Shown here: positions 16,597 to 37,615 of the stretch, in pieces | Layout: each line of letters begins with the position of its first letter | How positions within the stretch are numbered: the stretch's first letter is position 1 | Source of the DNA: a phage | Direction: 5' to 3' (one strand) | Sequence record: QB031382.1 | Length of the DNA: 64,000 nucleotides | Translations under genes and position numbers: made by a program | Notes under the pieces: generated by a model | Seen by the model: the letters and a program-made list of their open reading frames with translations, nothing else | What the model was told of the DNA's origin: nothing | Database searches by the model: none

Positions 16597-16629
16597 ATTT
16601 AGATGGTATCGGAGTGTCCTGGAGAGGTT

Positions 16630-17907: not shown

Positions 17908-18905
17908 TGGCAGAGTACAGACGTAGAACATGGCGACTGTTGTTTGGTCGCCCTGTAGAGCATGGCGGTAAATCAAAAACCAATATCCCAAAATCTGTTG
18001 AAAAGAAAGGAGAGAGTGATTCCGGAGTTTATGAGATTAGCTCGGACACTGGTGCTGCCAATATAGAGTTTGACATACAAAAGGACAATACTAAAGAGCC
18101 AAACAAAGGCTATGTGACAGTTTACAATCTGTCTGACGATACAGTCAACTATCTAGATATGCATCAAGCTGATGCTCTTGCAGTTATGTTTGAGGCTGGC
18201 TATGATAATGAGAACCAGTTGATATTTTCCGGAACTGTAGAGTTTGTTGAGGACAGATGGGAAGGCCCGACCAGAAAAACTAAGTTCATCTTTGGTGATG
18301 GCACTGAGAACATCATTAAGTGCCAAAGCACAAGATCTTATCAGAAAGGCACACCTCTAAACTCTGTGCTTAATGACCTGCTGAAGGATATGAACTTGCC
18401 AAAAGGTAGGGTTGTTGGTTTTGGAAACCAGACTTTGCAATACTCTATGGCTTTCTCTGGAAACACTGCAGAGAACCTCCGCAGGTTTGCAAGGCTGACA
18501 AACTCAACATTTAGCGTTCAGGACGGTGCTTTATATTGGACCAAGGTTGGAAAAAGGTTCAAGGACTCTGTATTTGAAATAAGTGCAGAATCTGGGATGC
18601 ACGGATCACCTACTCCTAAAAACCCAGAACCTGCTAAAAAACGAAAAGCTAAAGCTGCTGCGAAAGGTGGCACAAGTAAGAAAAAGAAAAACCCGAGAGA
18701 GGATGTTGGTCTTACTGTAACAACATGCCTTAACGGAGCTATCCTCCCAGAGTCCACCATTTATCTTAAAAGTAGGCAATACACAGGCTTCTATAAGGTG
18801 ATCACGGTGCACCATAAGGGCACCATAGAAGGCGGTGATTACACTACAGAGCTTGGCCTTGGGGAAACAATAGGTGGAGTTGTTGACAAAACTGAGGAGG
18901 TATAA
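17907..18905 (+). CDS. Baseplate or tail protein (putative)
   Basis: 332 aa with a basic Lys-rich patch (KKRKAKAAAKGGTSKKKKNP). Position suggests hub or baseplate. Confidence 0.4.
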   Translation: MAEYRRRTWRLLFGRPVEHGGKSKTNIPKSVEKKGESDSGVYEISSDTGAANIEFDIQKDNTKEPNKGYVTVYNLSDDTVNYLDMHQADALAVMFEAGYDNENQLIFSGTVEFVEDRWEGPTRKTKFIFGDGTENIIKCQSTRSYQKGTPLNSVLNDLLKDMNLPKGRVVGFGNQTLQYSMAFSGNTAENLRRFARLTNSTFSVQDGALYWTKVGKRFKDSVFEISAESGMHGSPTPKNPEPAKKRKAKAAAKGGTSKKKKNPREDVGLTVTTCLNGAILPESTIYLKSRQYTGFYKVITVHHKGTIEGGDYTTELGLGETIGGVVDKTEEV

Positions 18906-19582
18906 TGGCAATAAATAGGAAAGATGCTGCCGTAAGATCCTTTATAGAAAAAATAATGAGGGACTATCACACCAGTATCAGGGCTAGAGTTGTCAGTGTA
19001 GATTACAGTATCCCCTCCGCAGCAGTGCAGCCAATAGCTGAAACTACGTTTGATGACGGAGATGTTGAGAGATACCCTCTTATCTATGATGTGCCAATAC
19101 AGGTAATGTCTGCAAACAGTGGGAAGGCAAGGTTAACACTTCCTATTAAGGCTGGAGATGTTGTAGGATTGCAGTTTTCAGAGAGAAATGAAAACAATAA
19201 TGATGATCAACAAACTCACGGCCTGTTTCCGGGGTGGGCAATAACCTCTGTTCATTCAGACTCTAACGCCCTGCAGATCGATCCTGATAATGTAGAGTTA
19301 TGGAATGATAGGGTTTATTTTAAGCTGACACCTTCTGGTGATTTTGAGCTTCAAACCCCTGGTGGGACATTACGGTGCGACAGTAGCGGGGAGTTTTCTT
19401 TCACCAACGGAGCTGCCAATTTACGAGCTGCTGTGGATGGAAATATTAGAATGAATGGTGCCACAATAGACCCATCTGGTAGAATCATAACTGCTGCTGG
19501 TGTGGATTTGGACTCATTCTATGCAGAATATAAAGGTCATACCCACTCTTGCCCTGATGGTGAGACAAGTGGACCGCACTAA
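18905..19582 (+). CDS. Baseplate central spike protein (gp5/Gp138-like, putative)
   Basis: N-terminal region resembles spike OB-domain proteins from memory; lies in baseplate block. Confidence 0.4.
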   Translation: MAINRKDAAVRSFIEKIMRDYHTSIRARVVSVDYSIPSAAVQPIAETTFDDGDVERYPLIYDVPIQVMSANSGKARLTLPIKAGDVVGLQFSERNENNNDDQQTHGLFPGWAITSVHSDSNALQIDPDNVELWNDRVYFKLTPSGDFELQTPGGTLRCDSSGEFSFTNGAANLRAAVDGNIRMNGATIDPSGRIITAAGVDLDSFYAEYKGHTHSCPDGETSGPH

Positions 19583-19594
19583 TAGAGGGCTTGC

Positions 19595-20311
19595 ATGGCT
19601 ACGCTTTATAGTGATATATTGATGGACCCACAGACAGGCGATTTGGCGATAGACAAAGGTCTTGAGTTGATAGACTCAAACCAGGTAAGTCTGCGCCAGC
19701 GCCTGTGGATGAGGTTTAATACCTGGAAAGGGAGCTGGTACTTTGACGAGTTGTTTGGCTTCCCTTATATGGACTTTCTTAGTAAGAAGGTCATGAAGAC
19801 TGTTCTTGATAACAAGATTATGGAAGTGGCAAGACAAGAGCCGGATGTGCTAAACATCATAAACTTCCAGTCTACCATGGATCGAAGATCGAGAACATAC
19901 CAAGCGTTCTTTGAGGTTGTTACCAAAGAGAACGAGATTGTAAGGCTGGCCTTCGTAGGTCTTGATCAGTTCACCTACCCACAGCCTGATTCTGGGACAA
20001 CCTCTCTTTGTGATGATGAGGGTTGGATTAAGTGGGCTAATAAACTGTACTATCTGATCAACTTCAGATTGCCTAGAACCGGAGATGCCACATGGTGGAA
20101 CCAGTATGCTGGTCCTGAGATGGAAAACCCGATCCCTGTAGGCTCTCTGTTGACTCAGGATAAAGATCTGCTGATGACTGAGGCAGAACAAACCATTAAC
20201 CGCAATACCTGGACGCTTGCTCCAGATGAGCGCGAATACTCTGGTGTTATTGCTACCTCCAATGATGAGGCTATTGCCAACCAGTCTGGTCGTGCTATTG
20301 ATGTTAACTAA
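19595..20311 (+). CDS. Baseplate wedge protein (putative)
   Basis: 238-aa ORF in baseplate block. Confidence 0.35.
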   Translation: MATLYSDILMDPQTGDLAIDKGLELIDSNQVSLRQRLWMRFNTWKGSWYFDELFGFPYMDFLSKKVMKTVLDNKIMEVARQEPDVLNIINFQSTMDRRSRTYQAFFEVVTKENEIVRLAFVGLDQFTYPQPDSGTTSLCDDEGWIKWANKLYYLINFRLPRTGDATWWNQYAGPEMENPIPVGSLLTQDKDLLMTEAEQTINRNTWTLAPDEREYSGVIATSNDEAIANQSGRAIDVN

Positions 20312-23623: not shown

Positions 23624-26600
23624 ATGGCTGATATTAAAGTTGTCAGAATTGAATCTCTTCCTGCCACTACCGCAGTGACAGAGGATGATTACCTGGTTGT
23701 TCAACAACCAGACCTGACCCGTCGTGTAAAAATTGGCGATGTTGTCCATGTGGATGGGACTGTTTCTCATGTAATCTCCTTTAAGGAAGGTGGTAAGTTA
23801 AACGGCCCAATGGATTTTGCCTACTTCGAAGAGGAAGACCTCTACCTGCGTTGGAAAGGCGAATTTCCACACACTGTGCCTGCACTGTCTTCACCGTACT
23901 CTGATGGTGGGATTACCGATGCTGCATGGATGGTATATACAGATCCGTCCTTAAGGGAGGAGCTGGAGTCTACCATTGGCGCATCTATGATCATGACAGC
24001 CGAAGGGCAGTCTGTCCAGGATGTAATGGATGTTACGGTTCAGACAGCCAACGATGCTAAAGCACTTGCACAGCGGGTAGATTTTGGTACAGTGCATACT
24101 GTAGGCGATGTTATTCACCTTGTCAACTTTGTTGGTCCTGCAGTTATTGAAGAGGGAAGAACTACTAACTACCCTTCTGTAGCAGCTGGTGAAAAATTTC
24201 TGAACGGTGTGGTATCTCGTCGTGATACTACGACTGTTGATGGTATTTTCCGTGGCGCTACCTCTGGAGCCATGTATACCATTGCAGTAACCAATGGTGT
24301 AGCAACAACAAAAAGAATAGCACTTCGTGATGAATTTAAACGCCTGGAGGCAAACAACCCAACAAGAACAGTTATCCGTGCTGGAGATGATTTAAACACG
24401 GCAGGGTACTTGCAGCTTGATGCAGCAGGCCGTTGGGGTATGTGGAACCAGCAAACAGCCTCGTGGCAACCTCTTGCTATAGAGCAAGGTGGTACAGGTG
24501 CCAGAGATGCCGCTGGAGTCCGTATCAATATCGGTGCTTTCTATAAGCAACGTGCAGCCCTTGAGCCAAATTTCAATATCAATAACTTGACTGGTAATCA
24601 GGATGGTGTATACTACCAGCCAATGACTGCTTATGCAACTGAGGCAAATGGTTACCCTGCAGGTTCTGGTGCTGGTCACTTGATTGTTTGGCAGAACAAT
24701 GCTAACGGCGGTACAGGTTGTCGTCAGGAATACTATCCATTCTCTAACGTAGATGTTTGGTATTTAAGAACCTATCAGGCCAACACAAACCAGTGGACTG
24801 CATGGCAGCCAATGGTCAGACCTCGTAACGATGATACCTTTAGATCGCACATCGGTCTCGGGTCTAGAAACTCCCCTACCTTCGGGCACCTTTACCTGTC
24901 TCAAAGTTCTGCTGATGTTAAGTCAGCATCCGGTATTGTTAACGGGGACAAATACAGCGCTGACGGTGTCCTTGAGCATGGATATAGGATCTACTCAGAG
25001 GTAAGAAACGACAATAAGGCTTGGTTAACAATCCACCTGCACAAAGGTGCAAAAGGATCTGAAACTCATCGGTATTTAGGATTCCGTGAAGATGGTGTGT
25101 TAGATTGTCCTAAGTACATGCAGGTTGGGGATCTTACTGGTCAGCTGACAAACTGGGGACTGGGAGAATGGATTCGTAGTTCAGGGGCAGAAAGAGGGTT
25201 CTGGGGTTCCAAGAAAGCCGCTAAGATGGTCGTCTGGGATGGCGGTATGGATGAATCCGGTAATGGTTCTCTAGAATGGGGTGTTTATAACAACCGGAAG
25301 GCCAAGTGGGAGCCTTTACCTCAAGCTGCAGGTGGTACAGGGGCTACAACCCTGGCAGATGCTCAGAGTCTGTTCAAAGTTCCTATAGCTGCGGGTGTCA
25401 AAGATTTCTTAACACTGCCAAGAACTGCAGGTATGGAAGATGGGAAATATTACCCAATCATCGTTAGAACAGATCCGTATTATGCTCCAGCAACTGGCAC
25501 CGATATTACCCTAGTCACCAGATTGTCATCTGGCGGTGACCCTATGAACTGCGCCACCTTACAGTGTCACTATAGAACTGGCGGTTGGACAGATAGAGGG
25601 GACTCTTTCTACGGGGTAGTGAATTTCTATCAAAATGAAAAAGCACTTCTTGGGATGGTTGCTCCAACAAGGGGTAAACAAGAGTATGTTGCTTTCTATG
25701 CAGAGGCTCGTGCTTTCCCTGTCAGCATATACGCAAGTAGAAATGTTGTCGAAGTGTTTACCAGAGAGCAAGATTATCAAGTCGGCTCTGTAACAAACAA
25801 TCAGGACGGTGTTAAGTTCGTTGCACCTCTCCAGTCAGCAGATTTAAATCTGGCTGTTCTCGGAGATAACAATACCAACACCAGACCTATTGTTGACTTC
25901 AAAGGTACCTCTGGGTTCTACACTGGCGGCGGCACACAGTGGCACTATATAGGCACTGCTGAACGCTATGCGGTGATGAGCAAAATGAACATGCCTAAAG
26001 TCGAACTATGGGCTGACGGTATTGACTATTTGTGCTACGGCAGTCCTAGAAAGGCGTTATTCTCTAATGCAGGATTTCAGTGTGCATCAGATGGGACAGA
26101 TGATCTGACTAACGGTACGTTTACCTCTAAATGCGGTAATGGTGCTGGACTTCAAGGTCAGGCAGAGTTCAGATCTACCCCAGAAGCTGGTCAAGTTATT
26201 GTTCGTGATGTTGTAGGTTCCGCTCACAGATTCTACAATTTCAACAAAGACGGTACTTTCTCGGCCCCTGGTGGTTTTGTATGCCACACAGGTGCAGACT
26301 GGAACAACCAGTTCGGAAATAATAATCCGTCCAAAATACTGGCTGGCAACGTCAACGGGCCTGAAGGTTCAATGGTTGTTGGCGGGTTGTCTGTGGTGTT
26401 TTCTGGAAACTTTGCTTTCCAGATGGCTGGTCGCCTTGATAGGTTGTATACCAGATCTATCGAGGGTGGTGCTCACAGACCGTGGAACAAGATCTTCTCA
26501 CACAGAGGTGCAGGTCTTGAGTCTACAGACCTAAACACTTACGATGGTACTTGTGAGGGCATCTATCACCAACATCTTGATGCCAACTCGACATCTGAAA

Positions 26601-27436
26601 GACATTACCCAGCACCGTACGCTGGTACTCTGATTGTTTACCAGAACAATGCAAACAATCCGAAAGGATGCGTACAGGAGTACATCACACGTTTTGGTGA
26701 CAGATATACTCGTGTTGGTAACATGGATAGAACTGGGACCACTTATATGTGGGAAGTTTGGCGGCACGATTCTGGTAAAGCTATTCAGTTACGCCCGAAT
26801 CGTAATGTTGATGAAACAGATAAAGAGCTGTGTATTCATGTTGGTGGTTCTGATAACCCCAGAAACAACACCAGCCTACCTGCTGATAATGCCAGATTAT
26901 TCTATTGGGGTAATGGCGCGGATAGGAAGAATGTGCTGGAGCTTCAGATAAGTGATAACTCAACAGCCGCCAGCTGGGTATTCCACTGTGGAGCTAAGGC
27001 AGATGAGGCTAAATCAAGATATTTTGCTGTCAACGGCACGGTAGAATGCACCACTGTTAGTCAAAGTTCTGACCGTGACCTGAAGGATAATATAGAGGTA
27101 ATACCTAACGCTCTGGAAGCAATTAGAAAGATGAAAGGCTATACCTACACCTTGAAAGAGAATGGTATGCCTTATGCAGGCGTGATTGCTCAAGAGGTTA
27201 TGGAAGCATTGCCAGAGGCAGTAGGGTCTTTCGTGAAAAGGAAGGAAATAGAAGGTCCTACTCAAGACGGTATTCCTCTGATGACCGAGGAAAGGTTCTA
27301 TAACGTTGACTACGCAGCTGTTACAGGCTTGCTTGTCCAGGTTTGCAGGGAACAGGATGATAAAATAACCGCCCTTGAGGAGCAGGTTAAAAAATTGACA
27401 GAGGTTGTTACTGGGTTGCAAGAGAAACTGAAGTAA
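23624..27436 (+). CDS. Tail fibre/spike with C-terminal intramolecular chaperone (peptidase S74-like) domain
   Basis: 1270 aa; N-terminal anchor shared with 20321. C-terminal DRDLKDNIEV ... YNVDYAAVTGLLVQVCREQDDKITALEEQVKKL matches the auto-cleaving chaperone domain pattern. Confidence 0.65.
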   Translation: MADIKVVRIESLPATTAVTEDDYLVVQQPDLTRRVKIGDVVHVDGTVSHVISFKEGGKLNGPMDFAYFEEEDLYLRWKGEFPHTVPALSSPYSDGGITDAAWMVYTDPSLREELESTIGASMIMTAEGQSVQDVMDVTVQTANDAKALAQRVDFGTVHTVGDVIHLVNFVGPAVIEEGRTTNYPSVAAGEKFLNGVVSRRDTTTVDGIFRGATSGAMYTIAVTNGVATTKRIALRDEFKRLEANNPTRTVIRAGDDLNTAGYLQLDAAGRWGMWNQQTASWQPLAIEQGGTGARDAAGVRINIGAFYKQRAALEPNFNINNLTGNQDGVYYQPMTAYATEANGYPAGSGAGHLIVWQNNANGGTGCRQEYYPFSNVDVWYLRTYQANTNQWTAWQPMVRPRNDDTFRSHIGLGSRNSPTFGHLYLSQSSADVKSASGIVNGDKYSADGVLEHGYRIYSEVRNDNKAWLTIHLHKGAKGSETHRYLGFREDGVLDCPKYMQVGDLTGQLTNWGLGEWIRSSGAERGFWGSKKAAKMVVWDGGMDESGNGSLEWGVYNNRKAKWEPLPQAAGGTGATTLADAQSLFKVPIAAGVKDFLTLPRTAGMEDGKYYPIIVRTDPYYAPATGTDITLVTRLSSGGDPMNCATLQCHYRTGGWTDRGDSFYGVVNFYQNEKALLGMVAPTRGKQEYVAFYAEARAFPVSIYASRNVVEVFTREQDYQVGSVTNNQDGVKFVAPLQSADLNLAVLGDNNTNTRPIVDFKGTSGFYTGGGTQWHYIGTAERYAVMSKMNMPKVELWADGIDYLCYGSPRKALFSNAGFQCASDGTDDLTNGTFTSKCGNGAGLQGQAEFRSTPEAGQVIVRDVVGSAHRFYNFNKDGTFSAPGGFVCHTGADWNNQFGNNNPSKILAGNVNGPEGSMVVGGLSVVFSGNFAFQMAGRLDRLYTRSIEGGAHRPWNKIFSHRGAGLESTDLNTYDGTCEGIYHQHLDANSTSERHYPAPYAGTLIVYQNNANNPKGCVQEYITRFGDRYTRVGNMDRTGTTYMWEVWRHDSGKAIQLRPNRNVDETDKELCIHVGGSDNPRNNTSLPADNARLFYWGNGADRKNVLELQISDNSTAASWVFHCGAKADEAKSRYFAVNGTVECTTVSQSSDRDLKDNIEVIPNALEAIRKMKGYTYTLKENGMPYAGVIAQEVMEALPEAVGSFVKRKEIEGPTQDGIPLMTEERFYNVDYAAVTGLLVQVCREQDDKITALEEQVKKLTEVVTGLQEKLK

Positions 27437-27443
27437 CTGTTTT

Positions 27444-27472
27444 GCCCTCGCTTCAGCGGGGGCTTTTTGTTT
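27444..27472 (+). terminator. Intrinsic terminator
   Basis: GCCCTCGC / TTCA / GCGGGGGC followed by TTTTTGTTTG. Confidence 0.6.
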
Positions 27473-27475
27473 GTA

Positions 27476-27504
27476 TTGCGTATTAACTCAAAATCTGGTA
27501 AAAT
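27476..27504 (+). promoter_or_regulatory. Sigma70-like promoter
   Basis: TTGCGT, 17-nt spacer, TGGTAAAAT. Confidence 0.45.
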
Positions 27505-27535
27505 AACTATCATGATTGTTTAACCTGGAGGCACA

Positions 27536-28126
27536 ATGTTTTTATGGGAAAGGCCTAGATACCTTCCAGATATTAGATTGGAGCTGCTGGCAGATATTGT
27601 TACGTTTAAAAGTCCGTTTACAGGTAAAACGCAAAAAGTAACCTATGCCACACCTAACTGGAAAGGCACTTTGACGGTTTCCAATATCAGCGAGTCACAG
27701 TTGCTAGAGCTTAAGAGCTTTGTTGATCAGGTGTATAAAGATGGAAACATCTTTCTTATTAAAACTTACGGTCACTCAGTTACAGCTAATGAGCCAATCG
27801 CCCTTGGGCCTACTGGTAACGACGATTTTTTGAAGACGGTTGGGTGGGAGCCAAACAGAGACATAGCCAGAGCTGGGGATAAAATATCTGTCAATGATGA
27901 ATTGAAAGTGGTAACAGCTCCAGTGCGTAGCGATGGTGTTGGGTCTGCTGTTATAGGCATATCTCCAAGACTTAGAAAACCTATTGCCGCAGGGGACACC
28001 ATGAAGATAATAACTCAATCTCCGAAGGGTAGGTTTCATATCAGAGATATTTATAAAATTAAGCAAAAAGTCGATGCTATGCAAAAAGGTGATAATATAG
28101 TTATCAACTTCTTTGAGGATTTCTAA
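27536..28126 (+). CDS. Tail tip assembly protein (lambda gpL/gpM-like or GTA-like module, putative)
   Basis: 196 aa; first gene of a four-gene block ending in the J-like protein. Confidence 0.35.
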   Translation: MFLWERPRYLPDIRLELLADIVTFKSPFTGKTQKVTYATPNWKGTLTVSNISESQLLELKSFVDQVYKDGNIFLIKTYGHSVTANEPIALGPTGNDDFLKTVGWEPNRDIARAGDKISVNDELKVVTAPVRSDGVGSAVIGISPRLRKPIAAGDTMKIITQSPKGRFHIRDIYKIKQKVDAMQKGDNIVINFFEDF

Positions 28127-28127
28127 G

Positions 28128-28679
28128 ATGATCAGAGCGCCATTAGATAATTTATTTCTTGAAAAGCTGGAGCTTGATGGTGTTGAGATCTTAATTGCTG
28201 CAAAGCTGGAGCTACCGACAGGAACTGTCAGGGTGTGCTCAGGCACTGGTGTTGTAGTAATTGAGGGGCAACATTTTATAGGGATAGGTGGATCAGCAAC
28301 ATTGACTGCTGTGTCTGAGAAAGATGCCACCAACTTCGGATCTGTGGTAGCAACATTGAACGGGTTTGATCCTAAATATGTTGGCGATCTGCTGAAGACG
28401 GAGTATTCTGGTTGCCGTGCCACACTGTATATCACCGCTATGGAGAGTGGTTTACCTGTTACAACTAATGGCTTGTTTGACGGCCTTATAACAGACATGG
28501 CTATTCAGACAGGGGAGAATAGTGCTTTGTCCATATCCATCTCTTCCATCTTCAACAGCTGGTTAAGAGGTTTTCCTTATCGATACACAGAGGAAAGCCA
28601 TAGCTCAAGAAACGATAATGACAGATTTTTTAAATATGTGGATCAGGTGGCAAGCCGCCCGATCATTTGGGAGGTTTAA
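28128..28679 (+). CDS. Tail tip assembly protein (putative)
   Basis: ATG 28128 after GAGGA; a TTG-initiated extension to 28113 is less likely. Confidence 0.35.
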   Translation: MIRAPLDNLFLEKLELDGVEILIAAKLELPTGTVRVCSGTGVVVIEGQHFIGIGGSATLTAVSEKDATNFGSVVATLNGFDPKYVGDLLKTEYSGCRATLYITAMESGLPVTTNGLFDGLITDMAIQTGENSALSISISSIFNSWLRGFPYRYTEESHSSRNDNDRFFKYVDQVASRPIIWEV

Positions 28680-29104
28680 TGAGCACACACCCTCGTTTAG
28701 TAGACTGGCAAGAAAGATTGTGGAAAGTGTTTGACGAAGAAGCCACCGTCCCGTTTGAATGGGGATTCCACGATTGCTGCACTTTTGCGGCTAAGTGTGT
28801 TGATGCCCAATACGGAACAGATTTTCTTTCTAACTTTGAAGGAACTTATAAAACAGAGTTGGAAAGCAAGAGATGGTGTATGCTTCGTTTCAAAACCACA
28901 CACCTGCCTACTGTTTTTGATCTCTTTTTGACTCGACTGGATACTCCTAAACAGGTTCAGCGTGGTGATATTGTTATTTTCGAAGGTCTGAACGGCCTCA
29001 CCGCTGGTGTGTTCTGGAACAACCAGATTTGGGCGAAAGGTGATAAAGGGATCTTTACGTTCGATATGAAAGATTCTATCGTTGTTGATGTCTGGAGGTA
29101 TTAA
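28679..29104 (+). CDS. NlpC/P60-family peptidase-like tail protein (lambda gpK C-domain-like)
   Basis: ATG 28679 after GGGAGG. FHDCCTF matches the catalytic-Cys region of NlpC/P60 tail-tip proteins. Immediately upstream of the J-like gene. Confidence 0.5.
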   Translation: MSTHPRLVDWQERLWKVFDEEATVPFEWGFHDCCTFAAKCVDAQYGTDFLSNFEGTYKTELESKRWCMLRFKTTHLPTVFDLFLTRLDTPKQVQRGDIVIFEGLNGLTAGVFWNNQIWAKGDKGIFTFDMKDSIVVDVWRY

Positions 29105-32100
29105 TGCCAATTGCAATGATTGATAACATCGTTGCTTCTGCAAGATCTTCAAGTTATGACTGGAACGCATCCAAGGCAGCTCTGGCTGACAGCCTGAACA
29201 CTGTTACCACCAGAACTCTGGATAAGATTTTCGAGGGCAACAAATCTTACAGAAGTCAGCAAGATAGACAAAAGCTTCTCAGATCTTCTGCTGCACCTTG
29301 CTCTGTAGTATATGGAAAGACACGCACATCTGGATTGCTTGCGTTTTTGGAGCAGGACAGGGACAGAACCCTTCATTGTGCTATTGTTCTTGCTAATCAT
29401 CCCTTGGAAGGCATAGAAGATATACTTATCGACGGTAATCCTATTTCTTCGTATGGTGATTTGGTATCATGGGAGTTACATAACGACAGGAAAACCTCTG
29501 ATCCTTTCATGGGCACACACTGCCCTTCATGGTCACCAGACATGATAGGTAGAGGGATCAGTTGGCTACGTGCCAGCTTCAAGTTCGACCCTAACAAGTT
29601 TCCTTTTGGGTTGCCAAACGTTACACTCGTTAAGGTTGGTAAAAAATGCTATGATCCTCGTATCAGTAAAGAGGTGTACACCAATAACGCATCCTTGGTG
29701 ATCCTGGACTATTTAAGAACGTACCTTAAATGTCCTGACGAAACCATCAACTGGGAGTCCTTTAAGGAGGCTGCCAACATATGCGACGAGGCGGTAAAAA
29801 ACGCTGACGGAACCAGTGAGCGACGTTACACCATTAACGGTGAGTTTGACATGGATGAGGCCCCAGCAAGTATTATGGCAGAAATGCTGAAAGCTTGCGG
29901 TGCAGACCTTAGTTATGTTGCTGGTAAGTATGGTTTGCTGGTTGGTGCATACTATGGTCCGGCAACAATGACATTGAGTGAGGACTGTGTCTGTGGTGAG
30001 GTTAAGATCTATCCGGAAGCCTCATTTGACAAAAGATCTAACACAATAACTGGCAGATTCACTAGTCCGACCAAAGGGTATTCTGAAACAGATTTCCCAT
30101 CAGTGTTTGTCCCAGAGTGGATAGAGAAGGATGGAGAAAGAAAGATAATCGATATAGACTATCGCTTTGTTACCAGTCCTTATCAAGCTCAACGTGTTTC
30201 TGCAATCTTCTTAAGACGTGCTAGAGCTGGCAGGATTATTGAAGTCACCTGCAATATGCGAGGTTTTAAATTTAAGCCTGGCCGTTACGTTACAATGAAT
30301 CTCCCAAGTATTGGTATAGTAGGCCAAGAAATGAGGGTTCTTGAATGGGAGTTCACCAAAAAGGGTGGTGTCAAGGTAAAACTTCGTCAAGATGCTAAAG
30401 AGTGGAATGATGCCACAGGGCAACTTCCGGATTCTGGTGATGTAGATATTCCGATATCTCCATCTGGTGTAGCTCAACCGCAAAACTTCAGATACTCCGT
30501 CCTCCAAGCTGGGGAAATAACTCACGGTGTTCTGGCTTGGGACAACGTTGGGACTTACGCTCAAAATATTGTGCAGGTAAGAAAGAACGGAGAGATTGTT
30601 TGGACAGCACAGACAGTTGAGCAGTTTGTCCGAGTAGAAGGCTTGACCAAAGGGTCATACACAGCAACCGTGGTTGCAACATCTTATAAAGGTGGTGTAT
30701 CTCCAGAAGCGTACTGCGAGTTTAACATTCAGGCACCTGAAGCTCCTGTTTCTGTAGAGGTTAAGCAGGGATACTTTGCTATCACCTTGATTCCACACAG
30801 CAGGGATTTAGCAAGTGTAAGCACCCAGTATGACTTTTGGACATCTGGTATGACAAGGTTGCCCGACACCAGCGATGCAACCGTTACTTCAAACGCCACC
30901 CGTATGGGTGTTGGTTCAACTTGGACATCCGAAGGTCTGCAGAACGATAAGGTTTATTATTGGTATATTCGAACCACAAACGCTTTTGGTAGCTCTCAGT
31001 TTGTAGAGTGTGCTGCACGCTGCTATACCTCCATTGAGGATTTGATGCCTCAGATAGATGCTGAATTCAAAAAGACAGAAACTTATAAAGAGTTGATGAG
31101 CACTTTGGATTCCTCTATTGAAGAGGTTGAAAATCGTGTCACAGAACTTAACAGGTACATGGATGGTAGAGTTGACGAGGCTTTTGACCACATGGAAGGT
31201 GAGTTCTCTAGAGTAGACAAGCTGTATGCTCAGTTGGGAGATAGGGTTGGAATATTCATCCAAGAAACCCACGACAACTTCCAGGACGTTAATGGAACGC
31301 TTACCACTCTAGATCAGAAACTGGTAGCCACTCAGAACAAGTTTGCAGATGATCTTTCTAAAGAAAGTGGCAAGCTTGCTTCTCTAATCCAGACCACTAA
31401 CAAAGCTACAACCGATCTGTTAAATCAGAAAACTGAAGCTTTGGACGAGAAGATTGTTTCAACCAGGGGTGAGTTGGAAGATGCTTTAGCGCAGGAAAGC
31501 TCTGAGCTGAACTCCCTGATTGTATCAACCAATAAAACGACTACAGATCTCCTTAATCGGAAAACCGAGGCTTTAGACAATAAGCTGACGGCAACGAAAG
31601 GTGAGTTGACCAACAATCTGCAGAATGAGAGTGCTAAACTATCGTCCTTGATTGAGTCAACCAACAAATCCACCACTGATCTTCTTAATAAGAAAACAGA
31701 GGCGTTGGATGAAAAACTGGTTGCTGCACAGGGCGAGTTGACTGAGCAGATCGGAGATGTTGAAAAAGGCTATCTGGCTGGTGATAAGAGCCTAGAGGGC
31801 AAGTTGAATACTCAAAGATCTGAGTTGGATGCGAGCATTCTGAGCACTAACCAGGCCACTGTGGACTTGCTGAACAGAACTTCTGAGACTCTTGACCAGA
31901 AGATTAGCCAGACCAACGCCACAGTGTCCAAAAACTACACCACGCTTGATGGTAAGATAAACACCGCCAAGTCTGATCTTAATACGTTGATTTCTACCAC
32001 CAACAAGGCCACAACTGACCTGTTGAATCAGAAAACGGCAGCTTTGACTGAGCAGTTAACCACTGCTAAAGGGCAGATTACAACCAACACCAATAATATT

Positions 32101-33249
32101 ACTGGGTTGGACAATAAGCTGACTCAGACGAAGAAAGACTTGTCTGCGAATATTTCTGAAACTAATAACGCCACTGTTGATCTGATTAACGGCACAGCGT
32201 CAGCTATTCGTCAAGAACTTGCTGTTGCTAAGCAGGAGATCATTGATGGTGTTGGCGATGTGTCCGAGATCAGGGCTGCAGTAGCTACAACAGCTAAGGC
32301 TGTGACCGACTTAGAGGGTAAAGTAAATGCTCAGTGGGGTACAAAAATACAGGTAGACTCCGCAGGGAATAAATATGTTGCAGGTATCCAGTTGGGGATG
32401 GAAGGGTCTGGGGGCCAAGTTCAATCCTACTTCATGGTTAGTGCAAACAATTTTGCGGTATACAATCCTGGCAATGGAACAGCAACCCTTGCTTTCGCAA
32501 TCAAGAACAACCAAGCGTTCTTGAAAGACGCTTTTATAGAGAATGGCACGATCTCCTCTGCCAAGATCGCACAAGAAATTTCGTCAAACAACTACGATGG
32601 CAACGGGTACCATAAATACGGTTGGTATATTAACAAGAACGGGCACGCCCAATTTATGGATGTGTGGGTGAAAGGCAACATCAACGCCAGTTCTGGTAAC
32701 TTCACAGGGGCAGTTAACGCCACTAGTGGTACCTTCCGTGGGGATGTTTATGCCAATAATGGTAGCTTTAGAGGCACCATAGATGCAACCGGAGGTACCT
32801 TCCGTGGTCGTGTAGAAGCTTCTGTTATCCGTGCCAACCAGTTCGAAGGTGCAATTGTTGCACACAGGACTTACGGGGATTGTGCTCCAGTATATAACTC
32901 TCAGCAAAGGGTTTGCCGTTGGAGGTGGAGATACGTAGATAACGTTTCAGGTCAGGGTAAGAACGTAACATTCTTCTTTAAACTGAACGGTACTCTTGCC
33001 AGCTCCCAACTGAATGCATGGATAGCTGGTCATCAGATCCTTGCTGGCAAGAAGTATTTTAACGACAACAACGGCATGTGTGCGGTAGGGATAACAGGTC
33101 TGGGTGAACAAACTATAGACATTGTTATCGAGATTTACACACCGTGGTCAACGTCGAGCGTGACAGGTGTCACAATCTCCTGTCCCACTGTGATAGTAAG
33201 TCGTTCAAACTCTAGCTTCCAGGGACCTTGGAACGAGTCTCACAACTAA
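29104..33249 (+). CDS. Host specificity / central tail fibre protein, lambda gpJ-like, with expanded coiled-coil repeats
   Basis: Segments parallel lambda J as recalled: APEAPVSVEVKQGYFAITLIPH, YYWYIRTTNAFGSSQFVE, KYVAGIQLGMEGSGGQVQSYFMVSANNFAVYNP, NINASSGNFTGAVNATSGTFRG. Confidence 0.7.
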   Translation: MPIAMIDNIVASARSSSYDWNASKAALADSLNTVTTRTLDKIFEGNKSYRSQQDRQKLLRSSAAPCSVVYGKTRTSGLLAFLEQDRDRTLHCAIVLANHPLEGIEDILIDGNPISSYGDLVSWELHNDRKTSDPFMGTHCPSWSPDMIGRGISWLRASFKFDPNKFPFGLPNVTLVKVGKKCYDPRISKEVYTNNASLVILDYLRTYLKCPDETINWESFKEAANICDEAVKNADGTSERRYTINGEFDMDEAPASIMAEMLKACGADLSYVAGKYGLLVGAYYGPATMTLSEDCVCGEVKIYPEASFDKRSNTITGRFTSPTKGYSETDFPSVFVPEWIEKDGERKIIDIDYRFVTSPYQAQRVSAIFLRRARAGRIIEVTCNMRGFKFKPGRYVTMNLPSIGIVGQEMRVLEWEFTKKGGVKVKLRQDAKEWNDATGQLPDSGDVDIPISPSGVAQPQNFRYSVLQAGEITHGVLAWDNVGTYAQNIVQVRKNGEIVWTAQTVEQFVRVEGLTKGSYTATVVATSYKGGVSPEAYCEFNIQAPEAPVSVEVKQGYFAITLIPHSRDLASVSTQYDFWTSGMTRLPDTSDATVTSNATRMGVGSTWTSEGLQNDKVYYWYIRTTNAFGSSQFVECAARCYTSIEDLMPQIDAEFKKTETYKELMSTLDSSIEEVENRVTELNRYMDGRVDEAFDHMEGEFSRVDKLYAQLGDRVGIFIQETHDNFQDVNGTLTTLDQKLVATQNKFADDLSKESGKLASLIQTTNKATTDLLNQKTEALDEKIVSTRGELEDALAQESSELNSLIVSTNKTTTDLLNRKTEALDNKLTATKGELTNNLQNESAKLSSLIESTNKSTTDLLNKKTEALDEKLVAAQGELTEQIGDVEKGYLAGDKSLEGKLNTQRSELDASILSTNQATVDLLNRTSETLDQKISQTNATVSKNYTTLDGKINTAKSDLNTLISTTNKATTDLLNQKTAALTEQLTTAKGQITTNTNNITGLDNKLTQTKKDLSANISETNNATVDLINGTASAIRQELAVAKQEIIDGVGDVSEIRAAVATTAKAVTDLEGKVNAQWGTKIQVDSAGNKYVAGIQLGMEGSGGQVQSYFMVSANNFAVYNPGNGTATLAFAIKNNQAFLKDAFIENGTISSAKIAQEISSNNYDGNGYHKYGWYINKNGHAQFMDVWVKGNINASSGNFTGAVNATSGTFRGDVYANNGSFRGTIDATGGTFRGRVEASVIRANQFEGAIVAHRTYGDCAPVYNSQQRVCRWRWRYVDNVSGQGKNVTFFFKLNGTLASSQLNAWIAGHQILAGKKYFNDNNGMCAVGITGLGEQTIDIVIEIYTPWSTSSVTGVTISCPTVIVSRSNSSFQGPWNESHN
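31351..32240 (+). repeat. In-frame tandem repeats (period ~123 nt) encoding coiled-coil modules in the J-like protein
   Basis: At least three clear copies (from 31351, 31474, 31597) of L..SLI.STNK.TTDLLN.KTEALD.KL..T.GEL, then degenerate copies. Confidence 0.7.
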
Positions 33250-33257
33250 CCTTTAAA

Positions 33258-33284
33258 GCCCCGCTTCGGCGGGGTTTATTTTTA
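33258..33284 (+). terminator. Intrinsic terminator
   Basis: CCCCGC / TTCG / GCGGGG followed by TTTATTTTTA. The 16-mer is identical to that at 59420-59435. Confidence 0.65.
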
Positions 33285-33292
33285 TGCTCAGA

Positions 33293-33321
33293 TTGACTAT
33301 TGTTACAAAATTTGGTAAAAT
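33293..33321 (+). promoter_or_regulatory. Sigma70-like promoter
   Basis: TTGACT, 17-nt spacer, TGGTAAAAT. Confidence 0.55.
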
Positions 33322-33354
33322 ACCTTGTAGAGATTTTCATACCGGAGGAGTGAC

Positions 33355-34845
33355 GTGGCTAAGTATGGATTGACAGAGGCTGGTTTCGTTATACCAACCC
33401 TAAATGACCTAATCGTTGAAACTAAGCAAAGCCTGATCCGTGCTTTTGGCGAAAACTTCAACGTACAGAGTAACTCCGTTGCAGATAAGCTGACCACTAT
33501 CTTCAACGAGCGAGAGTATCAACTTATTCTTATGGCAGCATCTGTATACGCATCACAGACGCTGTATGGGGCAGAAGGTATTTACCTAGATGAGCTTCTT
33601 GGAAGACAGGGTATTTACCGAAGAGGCCGTTCTAAATCATCAGGTACCTGCCAGTTGACAATCAACACAACTGTGCCGTACAATATGATTTATGATTCCA
33701 AAACTTATACGCTGGACAGTGGCAACTTTGTTCTTAGCAACGATGTGCAAGTAGCAGGGAATCTTATTGCTCACAGAATAAATGCTCCAGACCTAAGGAT
33801 TGGGAAATACAACTTCCAAATTACCAACCAGACAGATGGAAGTATCAAAACAAAAAGCCTGGTTTTAACAGATAAGTCTCTGGACTCTTCTGATTTGCCA
33901 AGCTTTTACGGAGAGATTAAGCAATTCATTGTCGATAATACAACCCTGTTGAACGACGATTTGATTCAGATCGATATGTTGACAGGGACGTTGTGGATAG
34001 GGTACAATTCAAATCTTGATCAAGTTGGACTTAATAGCAGAGTAGATTTCAGAGTATCCCCGATTGTAGGGGAAAGAACTATCACACTGGATGTTATCGC
34101 TAACGAGGCTGGTGAGCTGTCAAGAGAAGCAGAAACCGTGACAACAATGTCGCCTACTCCTAGTGGATTTATCAAGCTTACCAACCGAGAAAGATTCAAT
34201 GAGGGCAGGGATGTTGAGAAGGACTCAGAGTATCGCTTAAGAGCTTCCAGCACTAAACAGTTAACATCTAAAGCTACCCGTCCTGCAATCCTTAGCGCTG
34301 TAAGCGAGGTGAAAGGTGTTGAGAAAGTAAGAGTGTTCTCTAACAACACCGATAAAACGGATGCGAAAGGTATACCACCTTATAAGTTTCAAGTGGTGGT
34401 GTTCGGTGGTGCAACAGAGGATATCTGTCAGGCGCTGTATCAAACCATAGCTTGCACAAACAGAACTTATGGGAATATCTTCTACGATATTACCACATCA
34501 GACGGTCAGACTGAAAGGATTTATTATTCTAAGGCAAACACTTACCGCCTGGATATGAGAATTACCTACTCAGGTGCTGCGCTTTCTACTACCGAAAAAG
34601 ATGCCATTACAGAGGCTCTTTTGCAGGTTGTTAACGGCTTGGATGTTGCCGATACGTTGTACAATATCCAATTGGTCGGTGCTGCATCTGCTGCTGTGTC
34701 GATAGGCAGATTTAATAGACTGGTAATTCAAGTTAAACCTGTGGGAGCTTCTGATGAAGCTTACACTACAAACGACATTGTTGCGAACATGACCGAGGTG
34801 TTTGACCTCGATGAAAGTAATATAACTTTCCAACAAACTATTTAA
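33355..34845 (+). CDS. Baseplate J-like protein (P2 gpJ / T4 gp6 family, putative)
   Basis: GTG start after GGAGGAG. AEGIYLDELLGRQGIYRRGRSKSSGTCQL resembles the Baseplate_J N-terminal signature. Confidence 0.45.
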   Translation: MAKYGLTEAGFVIPTLNDLIVETKQSLIRAFGENFNVQSNSVADKLTTIFNEREYQLILMAASVYASQTLYGAEGIYLDELLGRQGIYRRGRSKSSGTCQLTINTTVPYNMIYDSKTYTLDSGNFVLSNDVQVAGNLIAHRINAPDLRIGKYNFQITNQTDGSIKTKSLVLTDKSLDSSDLPSFYGEIKQFIVDNTTLLNDDLIQIDMLTGTLWIGYNSNLDQVGLNSRVDFRVSPIVGERTITLDVIANEAGELSREAETVTTMSPTPSGFIKLTNRERFNEGRDVEKDSEYRLRASSTKQLTSKATRPAILSAVSEVKGVEKVRVFSNNTDKTDAKGIPPYKFQVVVFGGATEDICQALYQTIACTNRTYGNIFYDITTSDGQTERIYYSKANTYRLDMRITYSGAALSTTEKDAITEALLQVVNGLDVADTLYNIQLVGAASAAVSIGRFNRLVIQVKPVGASDEAYTTNDIVANMTEVFDLDESNITFQQTI

Positions 34846-34856
34846 GGTGGCGGGAT

Positions 34857-35543
34857 ATGGCAGAGATTAAGTCGGATGTTAACCACATCCACACTCTGCC
34901 AGATTTTGTTCAGGGGGGTCTTGACTACCTGCCTGGAGATTTTCTGGCTGAGAAGGTTAATTTAGTCACATTCTTAACCGTGTACCTTAAAAGGTTGGAG
35001 GATGTTGATAAGATGCTGGTAGGTTTGGCTGAAGGAAGATTGCTTAACAATGCCAGCGGAAGATACCTTGACGAAGTTGGTAATCAACTTGGTATTCTTA
35101 GGAATGGACTTTCAGATGCTGATTTTCGTGCCACACTAATTATTCAGCAGGCCGCAGCATCAAGGGGCGGGACTCGCGAAGATGTCATCTCCACCTTGCG
35201 ACAATTGTTCGGAAGAGACAATTTCGATACGTGGAAAGGAGACAACTTCAGGCTTGACATAAATATTAGAAAAACTTGCTTTGACATATTGCAGTCTATT
35301 GATCAGATCTTAGACATGCTACCATTGCCTTGTCATTTGCGTCTTACAGAATCGCAAGGGCAAGCTTTTGGTTTTGAAGGGGACTCTACAGCTCTTGGCT
35401 TCGGATCGGTGTGGGAAGAAAACCAATTCGGAGTTGGTGGGCTGGCTACTTTGTTGTATGTTCCTGACGTAAGACCTGACTGGGACACCACAACCATTTA
35501 TTGTGAAAGTATTACAGTAAACGCAACTAGACAGGAGGGTTAA
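34857..35543 (+). CDS. Baseplate or tail protein (P2 gpI-like, putative)
   Basis: 228-aa ORF directly after the baseplate-J-like gene. Confidence 0.35.
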   Translation: MAEIKSDVNHIHTLPDFVQGGLDYLPGDFLAEKVNLVTFLTVYLKRLEDVDKMLVGLAEGRLLNNASGRYLDEVGNQLGILRNGLSDADFRATLIIQQAAASRGGTREDVISTLRQLFGRDNFDTWKGDNFRLDINIRKTCFDILQSIDQILDMLPLPCHLRLTESQGQAFGFEGDSTALGFGSVWEENQFGVGGLATLLYVPDVRPDWDTTTIYCESITVNATRQEG

Positions 35544-37615
35544 TGGCAACAGCTGTTTTTAAACCTTACCGTGATTACTCTACAATGGCTGCACAGTTTC
35601 ATTACCGAACAGTTCAGGATACTGCTGTTCCTGGGAGGGATTATAATCATGTTGAGGGCGATGTAACTATCCCGGTTGGGGCAACCAGTATCGAGATCCC
35701 TGTAGAAATTGTTGACAAATTGCCAAACAGGTTGCCAAGAAGCTTCTTTATGGAGTTTTCATCAAACTCACAAGGGGTTATGATTGGAACACAAAGAGCG
35801 AAATGTACAATAGTTTCAGATGAGAATCTTGACAGAATATCTTGGGATACCGTTGAGGAGAGAATGTTTCACCCAAGATATTGGGTTACAACCACACAGC
35901 AGACTGAAAGCACCTGTATTGTTGCGGATAATAACTGCTGTATTAACCGTTTAGTGTCAAGAACATATGGAGGCATGGCTGGGTGCATTTGGGAAACAGT
36001 TGACAAGTATGACCATTTCGGCATTGGATTTGATGATCACTACGAGATGAGAAACACCAAGCTTTGGTTCAGAATGTCAATAACCAATGCCAGCAACTTC
36101 TCCACCCCTGAAAAGATGATTATGACTGTAGACCTTGTTGATGGCACAATCATCTATGTTCCTTTAGCTCAATATGCTGTCAGCATCTCAGAGGATAAGA
36201 ATGTTGCAGAAATTCATATTGATTTCGAGGACTGCGTCGGGATGGACCAGAACAACAACATGATGGGTGTTGATCCTCGGCAGGTGAGAAGGATTTTAAT
36301 ACCACTTATGCCTAAAGATTGGGTAAGTAATAGCACAGACCCAAGAACGGAAAATGTAGAGTGCGAGTTGCGTCTAGATCTGCTTCAGCCGGACACAGGC
36401 TGGAAAATGATGCAACTTAACAATATCCAGGTGAAAGAGCACGACGTCGGGATCTGCACAGCATATGACGATATGTGGAACGTATCTCCTTTAAGGGTGT
36501 TGAGCAATATCAAGCGTCTAGGCTATACCGGAACCATAAACCATTATGTTGGTATGAGCCATTATTATGATTACACATGGTCCGGAACTCAATGGTCTAT
36601 AAACAGAACAGGAGCTCTAAACGCTGCAGCTTACAAATGGCACGATGATTTTATGTACAATGCCAAACGACATGACTTTGATGTTATGCAGTCTGTAAGC
36701 TTTGAGCTTTACAGTGATGCCTGTCCGTTGGAATGGACCCAAAGGGATTGGAACGATAACTATGCTAAAACAGGCTATACACCTTGTAGTTACCTCCTGT
36801 CTCCAACCATTGAAGAGGGTATGAATTTCCTTACTGCAGTATTTAAGAATTTTGCATCAGCCGCTATGAGGAACAGCCTGCCAGTGATCATGCAGATTGG
36901 TGAACCGTGGTGGTGGTTCAATACCGATACTCGTAAGCCTTGTATTTATGACTACCCTACAAAACAGGCGTTTTATGATGAAACTGGTGAATATGCCCTA
37001 GACATTGGGACTATTGACGATCCTAAAACTGGTGGTGTTTATGACAAGTATGTAGCATTTTGTCGTGGTAAGCTTGGCGCTCGTATTGCAGCTATTTCAA
37101 AGGCAATAAAAGCACACGCTGCATCGGCTCAGATGACAGCCTTGCTGTTTTTCCCAACCATTATGGAAACCGAGCTTACGCAAAAACTGAACCTTGCCGA
37201 CCAATATAAAAAGGAAGCAGGCGCTCTTGATTTCTTCTGCACTGAGTGCTACGATTGGGTGATGCAGGGTGGTATTGAAAAGGCAAAAGAGTCTGTAAAC
37301 ATACCTATCGTTAAGTTAGGTTGGCAACCGTCTGAAATACAATACCTTGCAGGGTTCGTTCCTAGTAAAGAGCTTGCTCCAGTATATGGCTACGACCCAA
37401 CCAGGAATTACCAAGAATTTTTATGGAGATGTATTTGCGGAAACATGGCAACCATAGAGTATAGATACCCTGAGGTAAAACAGTATGTGTGGGCATACCC
37501 GCAAGTAATGTCTGACAGCATCACTGTTACCGCCAGAGATTCTACCGTGCTTCATATGGGGCAGGTTGCTCTGAAAGGGTATGTAGAAGATGTTGTCCCG
37601 CCAGACTTCTCATAA
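35543..37615 (+). CDS. Tail fibre/spike protein with N-terminal Calx-beta-like module
   Basis: 690 aa. N-terminus (VPGRDYNHVEGDVTIPVGATSIEIPVEIVD) resembles a Calx-beta/Ig-like module; remainder Trp/Cys-rich. Confidence 0.4.
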   Translation: MATAVFKPYRDYSTMAAQFHYRTVQDTAVPGRDYNHVEGDVTIPVGATSIEIPVEIVDKLPNRLPRSFFMEFSSNSQGVMIGTQRAKCTIVSDENLDRISWDTVEERMFHPRYWVTTTQQTESTCIVADNNCCINRLVSRTYGGMAGCIWETVDKYDHFGIGFDDHYEMRNTKLWFRMSITNASNFSTPEKMIMTVDLVDGTIIYVPLAQYAVSISEDKNVAEIHIDFEDCVGMDQNNNMMGVDPRQVRRILIPLMPKDWVSNSTDPRTENVECELRLDLLQPDTGWKMMQLNNIQVKEHDVGICTAYDDMWNVSPLRVLSNIKRLGYTGTINHYVGMSHYYDYTWSGTQWSINRTGALNAAAYKWHDDFMYNAKRHDFDVMQSVSFELYSDACPLEWTQRDWNDNYAKTGYTPCSYLLSPTIEEGMNFLTAVFKNFASAAMRNSLPVIMQIGEPWWWFNTDTRKPCIYDYPTKQAFYDETGEYALDIGTIDDPKTGGVYDKYVAFCRGKLGARIAAISKAIKAHAASAQMTALLFFPTIMETELTQKLNLADQYKKEAGALDFFCTECYDWVMQGGIEKAKESVNIPIVKLGWQPSEIQYLAGFVPSKELAPVYGYDPTRNYQEFLWRCICGNMATIEYRYPEVKQYVWAYPQVMSDSITVTARDSTVLHMGQVALKGYVEDVVPPDFS

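Follow-up and report, generated by a model that had tools for sequence, protein, structure and literature searches.

Our analysis concerns a stretch of phage DNA of 64,000 nucleotides (sequence record QB031382.1; hereafter the window) and, at its positions 27536-33249, a group of four tightly packed genes whose stops and starts abut or overlap and which encode a distal tail protein (Dit), an L-like protein, a DUF6950 protein and a J-like protein of 1381 amino acids (aa) (29104-33249, + strand). Judged by its sequence, this group represents a complete siphovirus tail-tip cassette, consisting of Dit, an L-like hub subunit, a DUF6950 protein in the position of lambda gpK and a J-like hub-plus-fibre protein. 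The phage itself can be assigned with confidence to the rV5-like myoviruses of E. coli, genus Vequintavirus, the region 27000-34000 sharing 95-98% nucleotide (nt) identity with about 120 rV5-like genomes (more than 100 Escherichia phages of this genus). The cassette is located between a lateral-fibre gene (23624-27436) and the Baseplate_J wedge gene, and its J gene lies 12.6 kb downstream of the sole tape measure protein (TMP) gene of the window, beyond the myovirus hub, spike and fibre genes. The starts listed for the three genes preceding J (Table 1) are those of published annotations and the likeliest ones; longer open reading frames (ORFs) could begin at TTG codons at 28113 (L-like, 188 aa) and 28667 (DUF6950, 145 aa).

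The same four genes, in matching order and sizes, directly follow the TMP gene in SeppeHuegi, PY54, PSTCR4 and Vibrio 1.066, and in Halfdan the module follows this gene too, except that Dit and the L-like gene are separated by an additional gene; the TMP gene was annotated in three of these five siphovirus loci and inferred by position and size in the other two. Likewise, among 80 IMG/VR loci carrying the DUF6950 (K) family, Dit was present in 76, the L-like protein in 79 and J in 79, in the same order. Searches with the three small proteins (tblastn) returned two classes of relatives, those in rV5-like genomes with at least 90% identity and those elsewhere with less than 60%, the latter being found, among the matches sampled, exclusively in siphovirus genomes of 40-83 kb. 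The Vibrio phage 'vB_VibM_83AMN', considered as a second myovirus carrying the module, was rejected, as it is classified in Queuovirinae. A sequence-only reading of the window had described the three genes preceding J as a lambda- or gene transfer agent (GTA)-like tip module; the tip module was borne out by collinearity with siphovirus tips, whereas its closest relatives turned out to be Queuovirinae and T5, and hhalign comparisons found no detectable similarity to lambda gpM in the cassette and only 0.3% probability for the L-like protein against lambda gpL.

That the 29104-33249 product is lambda-J-like, as the same reading had claimed, was confirmed by a PHROG match to 'central tail fiber J' (E 6e-160), by the Pfam domains Phage_Tail_Tip (PF09327, E 7.6e-39) and Ig_J_second (PF24489, E 1.3e-30), with a weak Ig_J match (E 3e-5), and by two alignment blocks with lambda gpJ in the PDB (residues 497-678 with lambda 666-844, and 1065-1218 with lambda 850-991). 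The protein has the domain order of the J family, in which FN3/Ig_J domains are followed by the DUF1983 (Phage_Tail_Tip) central-fibre domain, and the positions of the two blocks imply that about 390 coiled-coil residues are intercalated relative to lambda. A full-length equivalog of lambda J was rejected, as the NCBIfam model lambda_TipJ reached 147 bits against a cut-off of 1950 and matched only positions 665-1050; Phage-tail_3 of Pfam was matched only at E 0.099. The N-terminal 549 aa share 55-58% identity, over 91% of their length, with J-like tail tip proteins (879-1040 aa) of approximately 60-kb Queuovirinae siphoviruses (ChristophMerian, SP8, SE1Kor, SeppeHuegi). In addition, a profile of the hub part aligned J 234-469 with residues 511-745 of the T5 hub protein pb3 (E 4e-5), and Foldseek matched a model of the hub to lambda J (E 5e-23, about 850 columns) and pb3 (E 4e-19), the other best matches being Ur-lambda J, the DT57C hub and the T1 and JBD30 tip proteins. 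Since the predicted local distance difference test score (pLDDT) of this model was 60 and its template modelling (TM) scores were below 0.25, these matches are taken as local support and the geometry of the model was not relied on.

The L-like protein belongs to a family of 615 representatives (exhaustive representative search), and a profile of 111 sequences matched residues 16-178 of the DT57C/T5 baseplate hub (8hqz_A, E 1.1e-8; 7zhj_b, E 1.8e-6). PF09931 was reached by 11 of the 111 family members (best E 6e-5), the window protein alone remaining below threshold. These matches identify the protein as an attachment domain of the type found in the T5 pb3 N-terminus and GTA g13, and since it matches pb3 16-178 and J matches pb3 511-745, the two proteins together correspond to one pb3-type hub. 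No Cys was conserved in the 111 L-like sequences, and a lambda gpL-type iron-sulfur (Fe-S) site is thus not expected. Dit is predicted to have the two-domain fold of T5 pb9. Its AlphaFold2 model (pLDDT 84) was matched by Foldseek most closely to DT57C Dit (E 7.5e-9) and T5 pb9 (E 2.8e-8), with E values of 7.5e-9 to 1e-6 and TM scores of 0.6-0.65 over both domains for DT57C and T5, followed by the R4C, Chi and JBD30 Dit proteins, and the best PDB matches of its profile were likewise the T5 and DT57C Dit proteins (pb9, E 0.0035). Profiles built from single sequences or from six sequences of the three small proteins gave no matches in the PDB; deeper alignments and the structure model were required.

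The DUF6950 protein, which the sequence-only reading had called NlpC/P60-like, is the weakest of the four assignments. Its invariant motifs PFxWGxxDCC and RGD(I/V)V align with the C40 domain of lambda gpK (hhalign E 0.003, probability only 11%), with D36-C37-C38 (window ORF numbering), invariant in the family, placed on 'TDCYT' of gpK, and Pfam NLPC_P60 was seen in a single DUF6950 relative at E 0.063. On the basis of these motifs and weak scores we regard the protein as NlpC/P60-derived. However, while the Cys motif is kept, there is no invariant His in the family; 'NHAAIY', the catalytic-His motif of gpK, corresponds to 'LTAGVF', with Thr, in a comparison by eye (MAFFT placed the two motifs in different columns). 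The N-terminal MPN/JAB domain of gpK is also absent, the 141-145 aa being fully covered by DUF6950. The protein is therefore probably not an active peptidase. It also seems to be the fast-evolving member of the cassette, showing 57% aa identity between two Vequintavirus lineages (L093 9145-9570) as compared to 79-87% for its neighbours, with a low ratio of nonsynonymous to synonymous substitution rates (dN/dS) in a close pair.

Relative to its siphovirus counterparts the cassette has not changed evenly. In all siphoviral homologues examined (36 database proteins and six from fetched loci) the N-terminal ~42 aa of J are Ala/Gly/Ile-rich and transmembrane-like, with a maximal 19-residue hydropathy of 1.9-2.45, whereas three Vequintavirus lineages share a conserved polar segment of the same length with a hydropathy of 0.31-0.39. 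The transmembrane-like start of J-like proteins (Queuovirinae, PY54, PSTCR4, Vibrio, Halfdan), which is absent in lambda J and appears to be undescribed, may serve as a lumen plug, in membrane insertion or as a substitute for gpI. Dit is disproportionately diverged, being 33% identical to the post-TMP gene product of Seuratvirus where about 50% would be expected from a J-hub identity of 58% (between siphoviruses, a J-hub identity of 55% is accompanied by a Dit identity of 52%), and its last ~25 residues no longer align with siphovirus Dit. The shaft of J measures about 400 residues compared to about 60-100 aa in the Seuratvirus counterpart and is the only part to show variation inside Vequintavirus, J being 1199, 1279 or 1381 aa long depending on the allele; it matched Apolipoprotein, DUF7217 and SpiroCoCo, and its repeats are visible only at the protein level, since Tandem Repeats Finder detected no DNA repeats in J. 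The last 151 aa, for which aa 1231-1381 gave no Pfam match, were found by tblastn in 117 records, all Vequintavirus, nearly all with 91-99% identity and two with 60-80%. Taken together, these comparisons indicate that the parts which in a siphovirus face the tube, the tape measure or the membrane are the remodelled ones, while hub core, FN3 and tip domains are conserved.

Table 1. Features of the cassette and of the surrounding contractile-tail genes in the window.
Feature	Position	Strand	Remarks
Terminator-like GC hairpin and T run	27444-27463	+	Ends fibre gene 23624-27436
TGGTAAAATA, late-promoter-like -10 motif	27496-27505	+	31 nt before Dit start
Siphovirus-type distal tail protein (Dit), 196 aa (rV5 gp40)	27536-28126	+	phrog_1302, E 5e-50; predicted T5 pb9 fold
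L-like hub subunit, 183 aa (rV5 gp39)	28128-28679	+	phrog_2048, E 2e-67; positional equivalent of lambda gpL
DUF6950 protein, gpK position, 141 aa (rV5 gp38)	28679-29104	+	PF22262, E 2.7e-34, end to end
J (rV5 gp37) aa 1-47, polar N-terminal segment	29104-29244	+	Replaces transmembrane-like hydrophobic segment of siphoviral homologues
J aa 48-460, hub domains	29245-30483	+	55-58% identical to Queuovirinae J
J aa 461-660, FN3/Ig_J domains	30484-31083	+	Ig_J_second, Ig_J; lambda J 666-844
J aa 661-1060, coiled-coil shaft	31084-32283	+	Six 44-62-aa repeats (S.I.STNKATTDLLN.KTEAL)
J aa 1061-1230, Phage_Tail_Tip (DUF1983) domain	32284-32793	+	Lambda J 850-991; 50-55% identical to Queuovirinae J
J aa 1231-1381, C-terminal domain	32794-33249	+	Vequintavirus only; candidate receptor- or partner-binding end
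Terminator-like hairpin closing cassette	33256-33277	+	Followed by second TGGTAAAATA (33313-33322), serving wedge gene
Sheath	9734-11110	+	phrog_205, E 2e-118; DUF3383
Tube	11121-11594	+	KPP10_Orf10
Tail assembly chaperone (TAC)	13399-13872	+	Phage_TAC_15
Tape measure protein (TMP)	14187-16523	+	TMP_3
Tube initiator	16603-17514	+	Dit_like
Plug-like protein	17527-17907	+	Pam3 gp18
Hub	17907-18905	+	phrog_196, E 2e-83
Spike, gp138-type	18905-19582	+	Gp138_N
Sheath initiator	19595-20311	+	PF10934 (Sheath_initiator) recorded for orthologue
Wedge, gp6-like	33355-34845	+	Baseplate_J; directly after fibre gene in other genera
Wedge partner	34857-35543		Downstream of cassette, after Baseplate_J wedge

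The cassette is embedded in the genome of a phage that possesses its own contractile tail, as the sequence-only reading had already proposed when it listed a sheath, a tube, a spike candidate and Baseplate_J genes beside the J module. Sheath, tube, gp27-like hub, spike, gp25-like sheath initiator and gp6-like wedge were all found, the call of a sheath at 9734, on which that reading had made its interpretation depend, holds, and the contractile-tail PHROG set of the window is the set found in virions of a J-less relative. The alternative of mistaken sheath, tube and baseplate calls, in which case the module would be the ordinary tip of a siphovirus, has nothing in its favour beyond the siphoviral homology of the module itself. 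It is refuted by these genes and by the absence of a TMP gene before the cassette, since the sole TMP gene precedes the myovirus initiator and hub genes. Moreover, the rV5 tail is contractile by electron microscopy (PMC3606486), and the orthologue of the sheath protein in FV3 is reported to make polysheaths (PMC6357053). We therefore give this alternative practically no credence. The same set has been modelled in the baseplate of the related phage phiTE, resolved by cryo-electron microscopy (cryo-EM) (9CUY; PMC11972413), a complete baseplate in which hub, puncture apparatus, tube initiator, spacer, wedge and sheath initiator were described and no J-like component.

A recent mosaic or a misassembly joining siphovirus DNA to a myovirus contig can be dismissed with similar assurance. 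The junctions are identical in about 117-122 independent genomes and in a deep sister lineage, and this recurrence in independent records shows that the cassette is not an assembly artefact; the GC content (about 0.44) is flat over the region including both junctions, while a recent transfer is at odds with a synonymous divergence (dS) to the nearest siphovirus beyond saturation and with aa identities of only 33-58%. Within Vequintavirus, every record carries the cassette, which was found in 119 records by Dit (at least 90% identity) and in 117 by the J C-terminus, as compared to 117 records for the wedge (at least 95%), and a deep sister lineage (L093) has the same arrangement with aa identities of 85% for Dit, 87% for the L-like protein, 57% for the K-position protein and 79% for J. 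The four proteins were not detectable within 12-20 kb in the baseplate clusters of Seunavirus KE22, the phi92-like Eryne, Mydovirus VIK251, Acinetobacter ABPH49 and Aeromonas PhAER-3, in all of which fibre genes run straight into the wedge gene. Absence from the sampled genera and presence in the deep lineage indicate that the capture, which was probably a single one, is old and genus-specific among the genera sampled, and the sequences place the cassette before the split of the two deep Vequintavirus lineages. The earlier remark that a siphovirus-type J tip together with a contractile baseplate is an unusual combination holds as well. The J hub of the window shows a pairwise identity of 58% to E. 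coli Seuratvirus as compared to 52% between a Vibrio member of Queuovirinae and Seuratvirus, which suggests a donor within enterobacterial Queuovirinae, similar to Seuratvirus or Nonagvirus.

All four cassette genes are under strong purifying selection. As dS was saturated in the comparison with L093, making dN/dS unusable, the closer pair with EmilHeitz was taken, which gave ratios of 0 for Dit (0 nonsynonymous, 11 synonymous changes), 0.013 for the L-like gene, 0.069 for the K-position gene and 0.087 for J (hub 0.017, tip domain 0.033), values on a par with those of the contractile-tail genes, namely 0.058 for the sheath and 0.021 for the wedge (0.02-0.06 for sheath, hub and wedge). In addition, the cassette is predicted to form a separate late transcription unit with a phage-type late promoter. 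Two near-identical units, each composed of a terminator hairpin followed by a promoter-like element, flank it on both sides. Four exact copies of TGGTAAAATA occur in the window (8184, 13347, 27496 and 33313, + strand), all intergenic and 35-50 nt upstream of structural genes, two of them after a GC hairpin and T run; with one mismatch allowed, 18 matches were found in the window as compared to 5.8 expected. The element is invariant in the spacers upstream of the wedge gene in other Vequintavirinae genera and is a candidate for a late-promoter -10 element conserved across them.

How a contractile phage might use a siphovirus tip is best explained, in our view, by exaptation of the cassette as an accessory adsorption fibre complex in which the hub and Dit end serves as a foot, a reading to which we assign a probability of roughly 0.55. 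The ancestor of Vequintavirus would have captured the whole cassette from a Queuovirinae siphovirus of enterobacteria, and its proteins would still assemble as a tip-like Dit6-L3-J3 complex. This complex would no longer end the tube or conduct DNA, genome delivery being left to the tube initiator, hub, spike and sheath of the contractile tail; instead, its hub and Dit end would be mounted on the baseplate or the fibre network, and through the lengthened coiled-coil shaft (about 55-60 nm) the conserved tip domain and the C-terminal domain private to the genus would be displayed towards the cell surface. The part played by the DUF6950 protein would be that of an assembly factor or a minor constituent rather than that of a working peptidase. 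Three observations make an accessory fibre the most likely solution, namely the presence of an own hub and spike on the axis, the infectivity of relatives without the cassette and a spike that is not extra-diverged. In micrographs of rV5, five to six thin fibres of 70 nm were seen (PMC3606486), approximately the length that a coiled coil of 300-400 residues with FN3 and tip domains may reach. In the Bas49 and Bas54 reconstructions, density without assignment was found on the TC8 fibre head, and the same paper called the N-terminal region of this Vequintavirinae fibre 'common in central tail fibers' (PMC12143355).

Several points weigh against this interpretation. Peptides of gp37, the J orthologue, were detected in purified rV5 (four peptides, five spectra), which is thin evidence for a virion protein, as only one peptide was fully tryptic and high-scoring and the other three were weak; gp38-40 were undetected among the 19 proteins of this shallow data set, and the mass spectrometry was too shallow for copy numbers (no more than 15 spectra even for the sheath). 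Three types of fibre were located in the cryo-EM reconstructions of Bas49 and Bas54, the J-like fibre not being among them (PMC12143355). There is no known partner or docking site, a six-fold Dit ring finds no obvious seat on the periphery of the wedges, and closure of the hub cone is not derivable from a J hub model with a pLDDT of 60. Receptor screens of rV5-like phages name the NGR glycan, and earlier genetics implicate a sugar of the lipopolysaccharide core; neither source is known to link the J-like fibre with a receptor.

The sequence-only reading had spoken of a central fibre, which is a label of homology rather than a demonstrated location; the axis is occupied by a hub and a spike that belong to the phage itself, and the protein was not located in the reconstructions of Bas49 and Bas54 (PMC12143355). 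If the location were axial, a Dit ring and an L/J cone would be situated below the baseplate and enclose the gp138-type spike, J would be a true central fibre, and receptor binding would open the cone as in T5 and lambda, thereby licensing sheath contraction. This arrangement, which we consider improbable, would be in keeping with the fact that all homologues of the cassette proteins are axial tip components, with a low gp37 spectral count compatible with three copies per virion, and with the finding that the most altered parts, Dit and J aa 1-47, are those that would be turned towards the new partner. However, the spike aligns without gaps and with 60% identity to that of the cassette-less Seunavirus, the same divergence as for the wedge and thus without any sign of co-adaptation, and relatives that share hub, spike and wedge are infectious although they lack the cassette. 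Furthermore, the reconstructions of phi92 (described in PMC8594841) and of Bas49 and Bas54 (PMC12143355) report lateral fibres only, and spike action would require that the cap is shed or pierced. That the captured tip acts as a receptor-gated cap, J sensing the receptor and opening before sheath contraction drives the spike, is given a low probability; if true, such a chimeric sipho-myo trigger would be without a described precedent among phages.

The undetected gp38-40, the weak detection of gp37 in virions and the cryo-EM reconstructions in which J was not seen (PMC12143355) could also be accommodated if the tip-like complexes acted inside the cell, either as decoy tail initiators sabotaging co-infecting Queuovirinae, a lineage that shares hosts and habitats with the phage, or as an assembly scaffold. 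We consider such a role very unlikely, because a decoy would have no use for the shaft of 400 aa, the tip domain and the conserved C-terminal domain peculiar to the genus, on all of which purifying selection acts, and because the lost hydrophobic N-terminus and the diverged Dit would weaken the interaction with the TMP and tube of a competitor. The good gp37 peptide likewise came from purified phage.

The J-like gene itself is already known and annotated in a heavily sequenced genus, with GenBank labels such as tip attachment protein J, central tail fiber J and lateral tail fibre with FN3 domain; the rV5 paper gave COG4733 and gp27-like HHpred matches for its orthologue, and the BASEL paper called the assignment of genes to fibres unclear. 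Our search of the open-access literature turned up no paper in which the four genes are recognised as a siphovirus tip module acquired by capture, or in which its mounting is discussed. That phages of different morphotypes exchange fibre tips is textbook knowledge. The transfer of a whole Dit-hub-J complex into a contractile phage that has its own hub and spike, and its long retention there, is not. If the complex is part of the virion, a machine that terminates tubes can be reused as a free-standing adsorption organelle, and one fibre of rV5-like phages, which are common candidates for therapy and biocontrol, would be identified. Moreover, the loss of the J N-terminus, the change in Dit and the longer shaft point to those parts of siphovirus tips that couple to the tube, the tape measure or the membrane.

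Some observations concern the neighbourhood of the cassette. Between the tube and TAC genes (11700-13325) lies a gene for an HNH/homing endonuclease of 541 aa (phrog_559, E 9e-112), which occurs in only about 4-5 of 118 Vequintavirus records, is absent in EmilHeitz and looks like a mobile intron-less homing element within the tail operon. The fibre gene upstream of the cassette (23624-27436) is allelic, encoding 1270 aa with a Peptidase_S74 chaperone end in the window and 1478 aa plus a separate 110-aa gene in EmilHeitz (locus L002, 15134-19902), a difference that fits the TC12 head swap described by cryo-EM (PMC12143355). Downstream, a fibre of 690 aa (35543-37615) combines NCTSP_N and TIM-barrel_NCTSP domains (E 1.4e-79), known from N4 gp65-type 'non-contractile tail sheath' proteins, with Calx-beta, and its homologue has been proposed as the N4 glycan receptor binder in rV5-like phages (bioRxiv 10.64898/2026.04.02.716166). 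Finally, 18 GenBank records named 'Campylobacter phage' (MG0656xx; host given as C. jejuni; 135-143 kb) share 93-96% identity with rV5-like phages of E. coli over 27000-34000, and their host label seems doubtful.

Among known systems, the tail tips of Queuovirinae (Seuratvirus and Nonagvirus; SeppeHuegi bas24_0017-0020, CAjan, 9g) are the most similar; there, too, the four genes succeed one another in this order and overlap at their stops and starts. The aa identity between the window and Seuratvirus is 33% for Dit, 40% for the L-like protein, 45% for the DUF6950 protein, 58% for the J hub, 64% for FN3 and about 50-55% for the tip domain. In Queuovirinae, however, the module follows the TMP gene and is itself followed by a receptor-binding protein or lateral-fibre locus, while in the window it is inserted between myovirus fibre and wedge genes, and in place of the transmembrane-like N-terminus and shorter shaft of Queuovirinae J, the window protein has a polar N-terminus, a coiled coil longer by about 350 residues and a C-terminal domain that is not related to theirs. 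T5 and DT57C share with the window the two-domain pb9 fold predicted for Dit, but the T5 hub is one pb3, whereas that of the window is split over two genes (L-like and J), and T5 has separate pb4 and pb5 proteins, whereas the fibre of the window is continuous with the hub, as in lambda J. Sequence identity to the T5 proteins is only about 12-14%, and the context in the window is that of a contractile tail.

The same positional logic is found in lambda (gpM-gpL-gpK-gpI-gpJ), with which the FN3 (E 4e-15) and DUF1983 (E 6e-11) parts of J and the Cys and GD motifs of the gpK C40 domain are held in common; the window cassette differs by lacking a gpI gene, the Fe-S cysteines, the MPN domain, the catalytic His and the LamB-binding C-terminus. 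The four-gene layout of RcGTA (g12-g15) is also alike in outline. PF09931, which represents the attachment domain at the N-terminus of g13 and of the phiJL001 gp84 hub, is reached by part of the L-like family, while the window protein itself stays below the Pfam threshold and no Phage_BR0599 domain was detected; the relationship to RcGTA and phiJL001 is a distant one. The backbone of tail and baseplate is the same in phi92 and other relatives in the Vequintavirinae, which lack the Dit-L-K-J cassette and have 'Swiss-army-knife' baseplates with several co-expressed lateral fibres, their extra fibres being of the tailspike type and attached via Tail_spike_N-type adaptors.

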